A stretch of DNA of 40,352 nt from Escherichia phage Dewey: the sequence record PQ850600.1; one strand, given 5' to 3'. Below, in pieces: positions 33,526-34,194 of the stretch (its first letter is position 1; each line of letters opens with the position of its first letter). Both the position numbers and the translations under genes were made by a program. The notes under the pieces were generated by a model, which saw only the letters and a list, made by a program, of their open reading frames with translations, ran no database searches and was not told the DNA's origin.

Positions 33526-33692
33526 TTGACCCAAATCGAAGTTACGAACAAGAAAGCGTCGAGCGGGCTTTAACGTGCGCTAATTGCGGTCAGAAGCTGC
33601 ATGTGCTGGAAGTTCACGTGTGTGAGCACTGCTGCGCAGAACTGATGAGCGATCCGAATAGCTCAATGTACGAGGAAGAAGACGATGAGTGA
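33522..33692 (+). CDS. ninF: NinF-like protein
   Basis: 56 aa from GTG 33522; [48 protein letters not shown] matches lambda NinF; not in ORF track. Confidence 0.7.
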
Positions 33693-34194
33693 TGTTAAAG
33701 AAAAAGATATCCCCGGCTTTGAGGGTATATATAAAGTAACTGAAAATGGAGACATCATTTCATGCCGTAAATCAAAAAAATTATCTCATGGCATTAAACC
33801 AGGAGGATATGCATTTGTCGGTCTGTATCCAGGTGGCGGGAAAAGACCATCATATAAAATGGTTCACAGAATTGTTGCAGAAGTATTTATTGATAACCCA
33901 GATGGCAAACCGGAAGTTAATCACAAGGATGGAAATAAACTTAATAATAAAGTTGAAAATCTTGAGTGGGTAACGCGAACAGAAAATGCGAAACATGGAT
34001 TTGATTCCGGATTGCTTGTTCATGGGTTTAATCATCACTTCTGCAAACTAACGCCAGAACAAGTGAAATCAATATATAAATCAAAAGGCAAATACAGAGA
34101 TATAGCCAAAGAATTTGGTGTTTGTGCGCAGACAGTGTGCAACATAAAAAACAAATCAGCGTACCGACGTTTTTTGGAGGGGATTGATGTTTAG
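33685..34194 (+). CDS. HNH homing-type endonuclease (NUMOD4-like N-terminus plus HNH)
   Basis: 169 aa; IPGFEGIYKVTENGDI and NHKDGNKLNNKVENLEW motifs; strongly AT-rich; inserted between ninF and downstream nin genes. Confidence 0.8.
   Translation: MSDVKEKDIPGFEGIYKVTENGDIISCRKSKKLSHGIKPGGYAFVGLYPGGGKRPSYKMVHRIVAEVFIDNPDGKPEVNHKDGNKLNNKVENLEWVTRTENAKHGFDSGLLVHGFNHHFCKLTPEQVKSIYKSKGKYRDIAKEFGVCAQTVCNIKNKSAYRRFLEGIDV

Follow-up and report, generated by a model that had tools for sequence, protein, structure and literature searches.

The nin region of Escherichia phage Dewey (sequence record PQ850600.1; 40,352 nucleotides (nt), hereafter the window) contains an AT-rich gene for an HNH endonuclease that begins inside the end of ninF, which raises the question of how such a gene came to lie there and whether it moved on its own. 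The first-pass annotation, made from the nucleotide sequence, had read it as consistent with a recently acquired homing endonuclease gene inserted into a lambda-like nin region. Here, we propose what we consider a better account, according to which an old cassette of two genes, namely the HNH gene and a YbcO-like gene downstream of it, has recently spread in a nin region of the HK97 type, where it takes the place of ybcO. Of the earlier proposal, the idea of a recent event is thus retained, whereas the lone insertion is not.

The HNH Gene and Its Predicted I-HmuI-Type Product

The HNH gene was found at positions 33685–34194 of the plus strand, exactly where it had first been placed, and encodes a protein of 169 amino acids (aa) with an I-HmuI-like NUMOD4-HNH_3 architecture. 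Its ATG (33685–33687) lies within the tail of ninF (33522–33692, plus strand; 56 aa; Pfam NinF 47.5 bits; TGA stop codon at 33690–33692), whereby the two open reading frames (ORFs) overlap by 8 nt. A Shine-Dalgarno (SD)-like GAGGA element (33672–33676) is located 8 nt upstream of this ATG and is likewise part of the ninF tail; the stretch from the element to the ATG (33672–33687, plus strand) belongs to the slot junction described below, ...GACGATGAGTGA. The local GC profile bore out the marked AT-richness that had been described for the gene: its GC content is 0.367 and its GC content at third codon positions (GC3) 0.276, compared to 0.503/0.544 for ninF, 0.493/0.570 for rusA, and 0.513/0.571 for ninH (flanking GC3 of 0.54–0.57), and a GC content this low is reached by 0.18% of all 510-bp windows of the 40-kb sequence.

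The protein is predicted to consist of three parts, all encoded on the plus strand: a NUMOD4 beta-strand DNA-binding module (33703–33828; aa 7–48; Pfam NUMOD4 29.2 bits, cut-off 23.4), an HNH_3 catalytic core (33856–33990; aa 58–102; Pfam HNH_3 42.2 bits, gathering cut-off 24.8), and a C-terminal helical domain of the DNA-binding helix-turn-helix (HTH) type (34054–34182; aa ~124–166). The latter was delimited in an AlphaFold (AF2) model, which was built on 38 relatives and has a mean pLDDT (predicted local distance difference test) of 92.7. In this model, the NUMOD4 strands comprise residues 6–8, 16–19, 24–26, and 43–47, which are aligned to I-HmuI residues 3–45, and the C-terminal helices comprise residues 124–132, 137–144, 148–155, and 161–166; a weak Pfam match to the CENP-B_N HTH was obtained at aa 139–157. 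In PHROGs, the protein falls into phrog_59 (“HNH endonuclease”; 7.6e-51), and its RefSeq name in E. coli is “NUMOD4 motif-containing HNH endonuclease”. A family for the HNH protein or for the 91-aa product of the downstream gene was not found in NCBIfam.

The only solved relative detected by sequence is I-HmuI (1U3E) of Bacillus phage SPO1, with an E-value of 8.9e-19 over residues 6–121 and an identity of 29%. It is also the only significant PDB fold match in the Foldseek search (E 3e-10; 164/169 columns; template modeling (TM) score 0.60), and since this alignment spans 164 columns, the C-terminal helical domain should be I-HmuI-like as well. These matches agree with the first-pass assignment to the homing endonuclease group; HNH_3/I-HmuI proteins are classed as homing endonucleases in “group 2” of the His-Me finger superfamily (PMC5714182). 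The two proteins are of similar length (169 vs. 174 aa) and share the three-part architecture. I-HmuI, however, is encoded within a group I intron of the DNA polymerase gene, whereas the HNH gene described here is free-standing in an operon, and Asp74 (D74) of I-HmuI corresponds to Asn79 (N79). The residues N79-H80...N92...W95...N101 are invariant in the alignments of 30 and 38 relatives, whereby H80 is paired with H75 and N101 with N96 of I-HmuI. Shen et al. are said to have described in 2004 that the catalytic His of I-HmuI acts as a general base and the Asn as a metal-binding residue. N79 was considered as a possible inactivating mutation, which was rejected because the Asn is invariant across the clade and is thus a lineage trait and not a lesion. 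Overall, the ORF is predicted to encode a working, free-standing HNH endonuclease of the I-HmuI type.

An Rfam scan of the whole window gave no family at the gathering score, and no group I intron was found. Because, in addition, the ORF overlaps each of its two neighbors by 8 nt, the HNH gene is considered to be neither intron- nor intein-encoded. A test for a moron detected one weak promoter-like site, which lies inside the ORF, compared to 2.2 expected from shuffled sequences, and zero terminator-like sites at the HNH gene, compared to 2.0 expected. As neither a promoter nor a terminator scored above the shuffled controls, expression of the gene in the lysogen is not expected; presumably, it is expressed together with the nin operon during lytic growth.

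The Foreign Block Includes a YbcO-Like Partner Gene

According to the Pfam matches, the local gene order is NinB-like, Dam, NinE, NinF, HNH, the 91-aa gene, RusA, NinH, and Q. The region is of the HK97 type, for which the order is ninE-ninF-(variable slot)-ybcO-like-rusA-ninH-Q. The first-pass annotation had proposed that the HNH gene interrupts the NinE-NinF-(rap)-NinH order of phage lambda; this was rejected, since neither rap nor ninG is present and a ybcO-like gene and rusA are found instead. In related phages, the slot after ninF is occupied by roi in HK97 (726 bp), by a 213-bp ORF in mEp043, and by a 270-bp ORF in mEp235. These unrelated occupants begin at the same ATG in the ninF tail as the HNH gene, and the left junction ATGAGTGA is identical for the slot genes of mEp043 and mEp235 and nearly so for HK97 roi, whereby the HNH gene and two of the slot occupants in HK97-type phages have the start codons for Met-Ser-Asp in common. 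Since unrelated occupants use this junction, the start of the HNH gene inside ninF is to be regarded as a conserved mosaic junction and not as an insertion scar.

The sequence is similar to that of HK97, mEp043, and mEp235 up to 33693–33698 and again only from 34459, the start of rusA (34459–34821, plus strand; Pfam RusA), which constitutes the right-hand shared flank. Thus, the foreign block takes in the downstream 91-aa gene. The gene boundary given by the first-pass annotation is right in that the HNH gene ends at 34194, but the block continues to 34458. The mobile unit is a two-gene cassette at approximately 33694–34458, in which the HNH gene travels with its own ybcO-like allele and which takes the ybcO position. 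A test for a transposon or insertion sequence yielded only repeats of 10–13 nt at chance level, and none of these lies at the block boundaries.

The partner gene (“B”; 34187–34462, plus strand; 91 aa; WP_000490061.1; GC 0.435, GC3 0.37) encodes a small His-Me finger protein with a CxxC...H...CxxCH pattern and sits at the position taken by gp66 in HK97; this gene is always present beside the HNH gene. At the coupling junction (34176–34194, plus strand), an SD-like GGAGGGG (34176–34182) inside the 3′ end of the HNH gene precedes the partner ATG at 34187, and the TAG stop codon of the HNH gene follows at 34192–34194, so that stop and start overlap in ATGTTTAG. Judging from this arrangement and the one at its 5′ end, the HNH gene is predicted to be translationally coupled both to ninF and to the YbcO-like partner. 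The partner protein matches phrog_131 in PHROGs (6e-31) and fails the gathering threshold of Pfam YbcO (PF07102), with 18.9 vs. 29.9 bits, whereas HK97 gp66 scores 147 bits. An hhalign comparison of the partner with YbcO gave a probability of 94.6% (E 7e-8), which supports an assignment as a distant YbcO/DUF1364 homolog. YbcO/DUF1364 and DUF968 proteins form “group 7” of the His-Me finger proteins and are predicted nucleases (PMC4999995, PMC5714182). The partner resembles YbcO/DUF1364 proteins (HK97 gp66, DLP12 YbcO, PDB 3G27) and Ref-like nucleases in size and in the CxxC...H...CxxCH pattern, and its gene is likewise located before rusA or Q. It differs from YbcO in that it is only ~28% identical to gp66, remains below the Pfam YbcO threshold, and has no PDB match by sequence, where the search returned only chance-level matches to SETD2.

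Probable Recent Spread, Decay, and Purifying Selection

Among 50,697 phage records, the HNH gene has a DNA match in one, namely Escherichia phage Louie, with 100% identity. The flanks match 419 phage records, and one of these carries the HNH gene. Within 5,426 complete E. coli genomes, the flanks are present in 2,237 and the HNH gene in 34, so that the gene is not a conserved constituent of lambdoid nin regions, as the first reading had implied. Seven further phage records with 60–80% tblastn identity were left outside the locus comparisons. The upstream backgrounds of the loci with the HNH gene vary and include NinX, a cytosine methyltransferase, an extra 402-bp ORF, the presence or absence of Dam, and, in one case, roi. 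Most of these loci are 99.7% identical to the window over the block 33550–34458, which also covers the 3′ ~140 nt of ninF (from ~33550), whereas identities in the flanks are 96–97% on the left and 97.4–98.5% on the right. The greater uniformity of the block is consistent with recent horizontal spread.

Of the 34 copies in E. coli, two carry inactivating changes. In strain EA7, a G>A exchange at 33969 turns the codon of the invariant W95 into a stop codon (W95*), and in strain AH19B041 an in-frame deletion of 330 bp (33846–34175) removed the HNH core. This deletion ends exactly before the SD of the partner, so that the SD and the start codon are kept, and in both inactivated copies the partner gene is intact. 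Such alleles represent a type of decay that is typical of a selfish gene. At the same time, the HNH gene is under purifying selection: across 24 near-identical copies, 11 synonymous and 4 non-synonymous changes were counted (ratio of the non-synonymous to the synonymous proportion, pN/pS, 0.10), and comparison with diverged relatives gave a pN of 0.21–0.25 and a pS of 0.78–0.90. The partner gene is under purifying selection as well. With an intact ORF and a pN/pS of 0.10, the possibility that the Dewey copy is a decaying relic was rejected; selection on the catalytic core argues that the enzyme is in use.

Relatives Without the HNH Gene and Remnants of Resident ybcO Genes

The first-pass annotation had named empty-site relatives as a check. 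Relatives that lack the HNH gene do exist, but a two-sided empty site, in which both flanks are identical and the HNH gene is absent, was not found in the 5,426 E. coli genomes or in the phage collection. The partner allele is present in 37 genomes, of which RM8082, DETEC-S565, and NCTC9104 lack the HNH gene. In these three genomes, a divergent gene of the NinF family stands immediately before the partner (93 aa), and the sequence resembles the window from 34196 onward, given as one base after the HNH stop codon. Conversely, HK97-type phages conserve the left side of the HNH site and have a different ybcO allele. A solo partner also occurs in Salmonella phage SEN22 (72% DNA identity), where it overlaps a NinF-like gene (NinF*) by 23 nt. 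Compared to SEN22, the HNH gene sits within this NinF*/partner overlap, whereby the third codon of the partner, ATA, corresponds to the ATG start codon and a former CAG to the TAG stop codon of the HNH gene. As an empty site with both flanks is missing, a cassette exchange at a mosaic slot describes the locus better than a simple insertion.

In three independent cases, the left junction was located in the 5′ portion of a resident ybcO, and each time an intact, different allele follows. In the first, that of a sister clade of 178-aa HNH proteins, many close relatives start with MANLRKEARGRECQV, which corresponds to the first 15 codons of HK97 gp66; this leader is fused in frame to the NUMOD4 domain, and the DNA sequences match as well. 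In the second (locus L005, E. coli QML220601), a window-type cassette follows roi and the first 10 codons of gp66, and has brought along 12–15 nt of the ninF tail. Here, the 10-codon leader runs out of frame into a mini-ORF of 16 codons, MANLRKEARGGRRWMM (L005 1812–1848), the TAA stop codon of which overlaps the first HNH codons. This suggests that translational coupling was re-established once an illegitimate junction had formed. In the third (L055/L056), ~50 codons of one YbcO allele are joined to the HNH ORF, behind which lies a different, intact YbcO allele; the latter shares 52% identity with the joined fragment. At each of these junctions, the HNH gene and its own allele replace the remainder of the resident ybcO, and together the three junctions mark the 5′ end of ybcO as a candidate target region. 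The sister 178-aa clade (gp66-leader fusion; L013:3046–3537) gave no megablast match in the 5,426 complete E. coli genomes and was found in draft and Logan assemblies.

Age of the Cassette and Attachment to the ybcO/Ref Locus

Relatives of the HNH protein with identities of 46% or more were drawn from IMG/VR, GTDB, and assemblies. Those with 63–75% identity come from E. coli, Salmonella, Klebsiella aerogenes, Superficieibacter, and viral contigs, and in all of them the HNH gene is followed by the same partner family, which overlaps the HNH stop codon. The overlap is of the ATGTTTAG type in E. coli and Klebsiella (ATGTATAG in Klebsiella) and comprises 14 nt in Salmonella. The outer neighbors of these pairs are unrelated and include a 658-aa DNA methylase, DUF1367, small ORFs, and RusA or a DUF1133 Q-like gene. 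The HNH and partner proteins co-diverge, with identities of 63–72% and 60–81%, respectively (pairs of 70/78, 63/62, and 65/81%), and in diverged pairs both genes show saturated pS at a pN of 0.12–0.27. From these comparisons, the HNH gene and the downstream YbcO-like gene are an old module of two genes that is not new to the gene pool.

More distant relatives with 46–58% identity were found in Aggregatibacter, Haemophilus, Neisseria sicca, and metagenomic phages. They adjoin a genuine YbcO or a Ref-like nuclease gene (matches to PF16786 and DUF968), which lies either upstream or downstream; the one exception is L057, in which the small nuclease gene is ~390 nt away. In three outgroups with less than 45% identity, no small His-Me nuclease gene was found as a neighbor. 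In Enterobacteriaceae, Pasteurellaceae, and Neisseria alike, the HNH lineage has remained with the ybcO/Ref-like locus.

Favored Mechanism and Alternative Explanations

With moderate confidence, we interpret the HNH gene as a free-standing homing endonuclease gene of the I-HmuI type that is specialized on the ybcO/Ref locus and moves together with its linked allele. The setting would be a co-infection, or an induction beside a related prophage. The HNH gene would be transcribed within the early-right (nin) operon, and the enzyme would introduce a nick or cut within or beside the ybcO-type gene of genomes that lack the HNH gene. With the HNH-bearing genome as template, repair would then swap the resident ybcO allele for the HNH gene and the linked allele, the latter being presumed to remain uncut. 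Right-hand homology would be provided by rusA and left-hand homology by the ninF tail or by a 5′ stub left over from the resident ybcO. Such a process would correspond to “intronless homing” or to localized marker exclusion and would resemble what the Seg/Mob enzymes of T4 do (PMC2790892, PMC2988022). Nuclease activity, target site, and nuclease-driven spread are parts of this scheme that we infer from comparative data.

Several observations weigh against such a scheme. Besides the missing two-sided empty site, the three E. coli genomes with a solo partner carry a different ninF allele upstream, and the metal-ligand position D74 of I-HmuI is an Asn in the HNH protein. No HNH-linked co-conversion tract was detected, as the polymorphisms in rusA-ninH-Q do not partition by HNH status. 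A long co-inheritance of the HNH gene and its partner would also be expected from a functional partnership. Finally, the slot also exchanges non-nuclease genes (roi and small ORFs) at the same junction, and therefore the distribution could result from the usual mosaic recombination of lambdoid phages, with no nuclease involved.

The latter leads to the strongest alternative, which we regard as unlikely though worth serious consideration: the two genes could be a passive mosaic cassette, one of numerous possible contents of the hypervariable slot between ninF and rusA, that is moved by ordinary or short-homology recombination at conserved gene junctions, whereby the nuclease takes no part in the spread and may have another role or hardly any. 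This would fit the use of one left junction by HK97 roi and the mEp043 and mEp235 ORFs, the occurrence of a second variable slot between ninE and ninF, the lack of a rusA haplotype linked to the HNH gene, and the failure to find an empty site with identical flanks. However, purifying selection on the catalytic core means that the enzyme is used, the block is more uniform than its flanks, and a random filling of slots predicts neither the fidelity to the ybcO/Ref locus nor three junctions in ybcO 5′ ends.

Alternatively, the I-HmuI-like enzyme and the small YbcO/Ref-like nuclease, possibly together with RusA, could cooperate as a two-nuclease module, which we consider improbable. I-HmuI is a nickase, and a targeted nick might, for example, be processed to a recombinogenic break, so that the pair would benefit the phage by promoting recombination or by acting against competitors. 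The suggested translational coupling through the overlap and the SD in the HNH 3′ end would be in line with such a function, as would the co-divergence of the genes over ~35% sequence change and the purifying selection on both. A small His-Me nuclease gene adjoins the HNH gene in every relative but the one with the ~390-nt distance, the in-frame deletion of AH19B041 spares the SD and start codon of the partner, and the Ref-family neighbors belong to the RecA-dependent nucleases (Pfam PF16786 description). On the other hand, the partner is interchangeable (B, YbcO, or Ref-like) and can lie on either side, YbcO-type genes occur without the HNH gene in more than 2,200 E. coli genomes and the same B allele alone in three, and the partner is still intact where the HNH gene has been inactivated. 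As the partner is interchangeable, occurs solo, and stays intact beside a dead HNH gene, a parasite of a locus fits better than an obligate pair. Slightly more doubtful still is the extended proposal that the HNH protein and the YbcO/Ref-like nuclease, perhaps with RusA, constitute a “targeted-nick plus processing nuclease” recombination module that is used to convert or exclude the nin regions of competitors and that may operate in lambdoid phages of Enterobacteriaceae, Pasteurellaceae, and Neisseria. If this were true, it would provide the first functional context for the uncharacterized YbcO/DUF1364 family.

HNH proteins with terminase/packaging or defense roles exist in lambdoid phages, such as gp74 of HK97. 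We give hardly any credence to a corresponding role as a gp74-type terminase/packaging factor, or as a stand-alone prophage defense nuclease in the lysogen, since the phage is P22-like, the gene lies in the nin region, whereas the packaging and head genes are found at the start of the window, with Q and a region with a holin-like ORF (36302–36625) between the HNH gene and the packaging genes, the NUMOD4 + HNH_3 + HTH architecture is that of I-HmuI, and expression in the lysogen is not expected from a gene that has no promoter or terminator of its own above the shuffled controls.

The HNH gene as such is routine, since it is already named in RefSeq and HNH homing-type genes are common in phages. 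What makes the locus modestly interesting is that the HNH lineage is attached to small His-Me nuclease genes and that a candidate target region emerges at the 5′ end of ybcO. Neither was found in a literature search of incomplete coverage, which also yielded no account of an HNH gene next to ybcO in the nin regions of lambdoid phages. Under the favored homing interpretation, the locus would offer a testable case of a homing-type nuclease in the temperate lambdoid pool, where mosaicism is usually credited to passive boundary recombination. If the enzyme cuts ybcO loci that lack the HNH gene, nucleases would actively shape mosaic boundaries in the nin region, and there would be a handle on the YbcO/DUF1364 family.

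Comparison With Known Systems

Free-standing homing endonucleases that spread with flanking DNA are represented by MobE of phage T4 (PMC2790892) and the Seg/Mob enzymes of T-even phages (PMC2988022). In lactococcal Skunavirus, I-HmuI-like HNH genes group according to their insertion site, and marker exclusion has been seen for them (PMC12724721), and in other phages homing endonuclease genes have been found at boundaries of genetic exchange (PMC10448857). Like T4 MobE, Seg/Mob, and the Skunavirus genes, the HNH gene of Dewey is located between conserved genes, occurs sporadically among close relatives, and has decayed copies; its lineage is likewise tied to an insertion locus and carries a neighboring allele along. 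The known examples, however, come from virulent phages and are backed by marker exclusion or cleavage data, whereas the gene described here belongs to the temperate P22-like/lambdoid pool, is known from comparison alone, and comes without a clean two-sided empty site.

Another point of reference is gene 31 of phage ε34, in which the N-terminus of eaE is fused in frame to an HNH homing endonuclease (PMC2629481). Both cases concern an HNH gene in a P22-like phage and the capture of the start of a resident gene, as seen here for the 178-aa clade with its MANLRKEARGRECQV leader and for L055/L056 with ~50 YbcO codons. Gene 31 lies in the early-left operon and thus differs in locus, and it also differs in HNH lineage. 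Moreover, the copy in the window has no captured leader, unlike gene 31, and uses the ninF-tail junction.

Further HNH Genes and Variable Loci

A second AT-rich HNH_3 gene is present in the window at 5058–5579 on the minus strand (173 aa; Pfam HNH_3 E 3.9e-22), at a local GC trough of 0.373. It is oriented antisense between the ORFs 4146–5057 and 5647–6942, which we take to be the scaffold and the coat gene, respectively. Its product is 36% identical to the nin-region HNH protein over 47 aa and has a canonical D-H motif (EIDH). By these features, the gene looks like another free-standing homing-type endonuclease gene next to essential genes.

Unrelated HNH_3 genes were also observed at other sites of nin regions, namely between ninB and ninD in Salmonella phage SEN22 (L025 457–1038) and after ninB in an E. 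coli assembly (L014 1996–2544). Thus, nin regions host several distinct HNH lineages. The ninE/ninF junction (~33515–33550) is a second hypervariable slot, which is empty in the window and in relatives (L006, L007, L009, L001) contains NinX (360 bp), a cytosine DNA methyltransferase gene of 945 bp, or a 402-bp ORF. The ORF at the ninB position (32397–32822) matches Pfam NinB below the threshold (18.0 vs. 23.8 bits), and the alignments to Louie, HK97, and mEp043 start no earlier than 32820, which argues that this gene is divergent in Dewey. The most AT-rich stretch of the window, with a minimum GC content of 0.359, was found at 26374–27169 on the minus strand. It contains two ORFs (94 and 156 aa) without a Pfam match, which are located transcriptionally downstream of the N-antiterminator gene (27178–27594; PF11438) and are probably accessory early-left genes.

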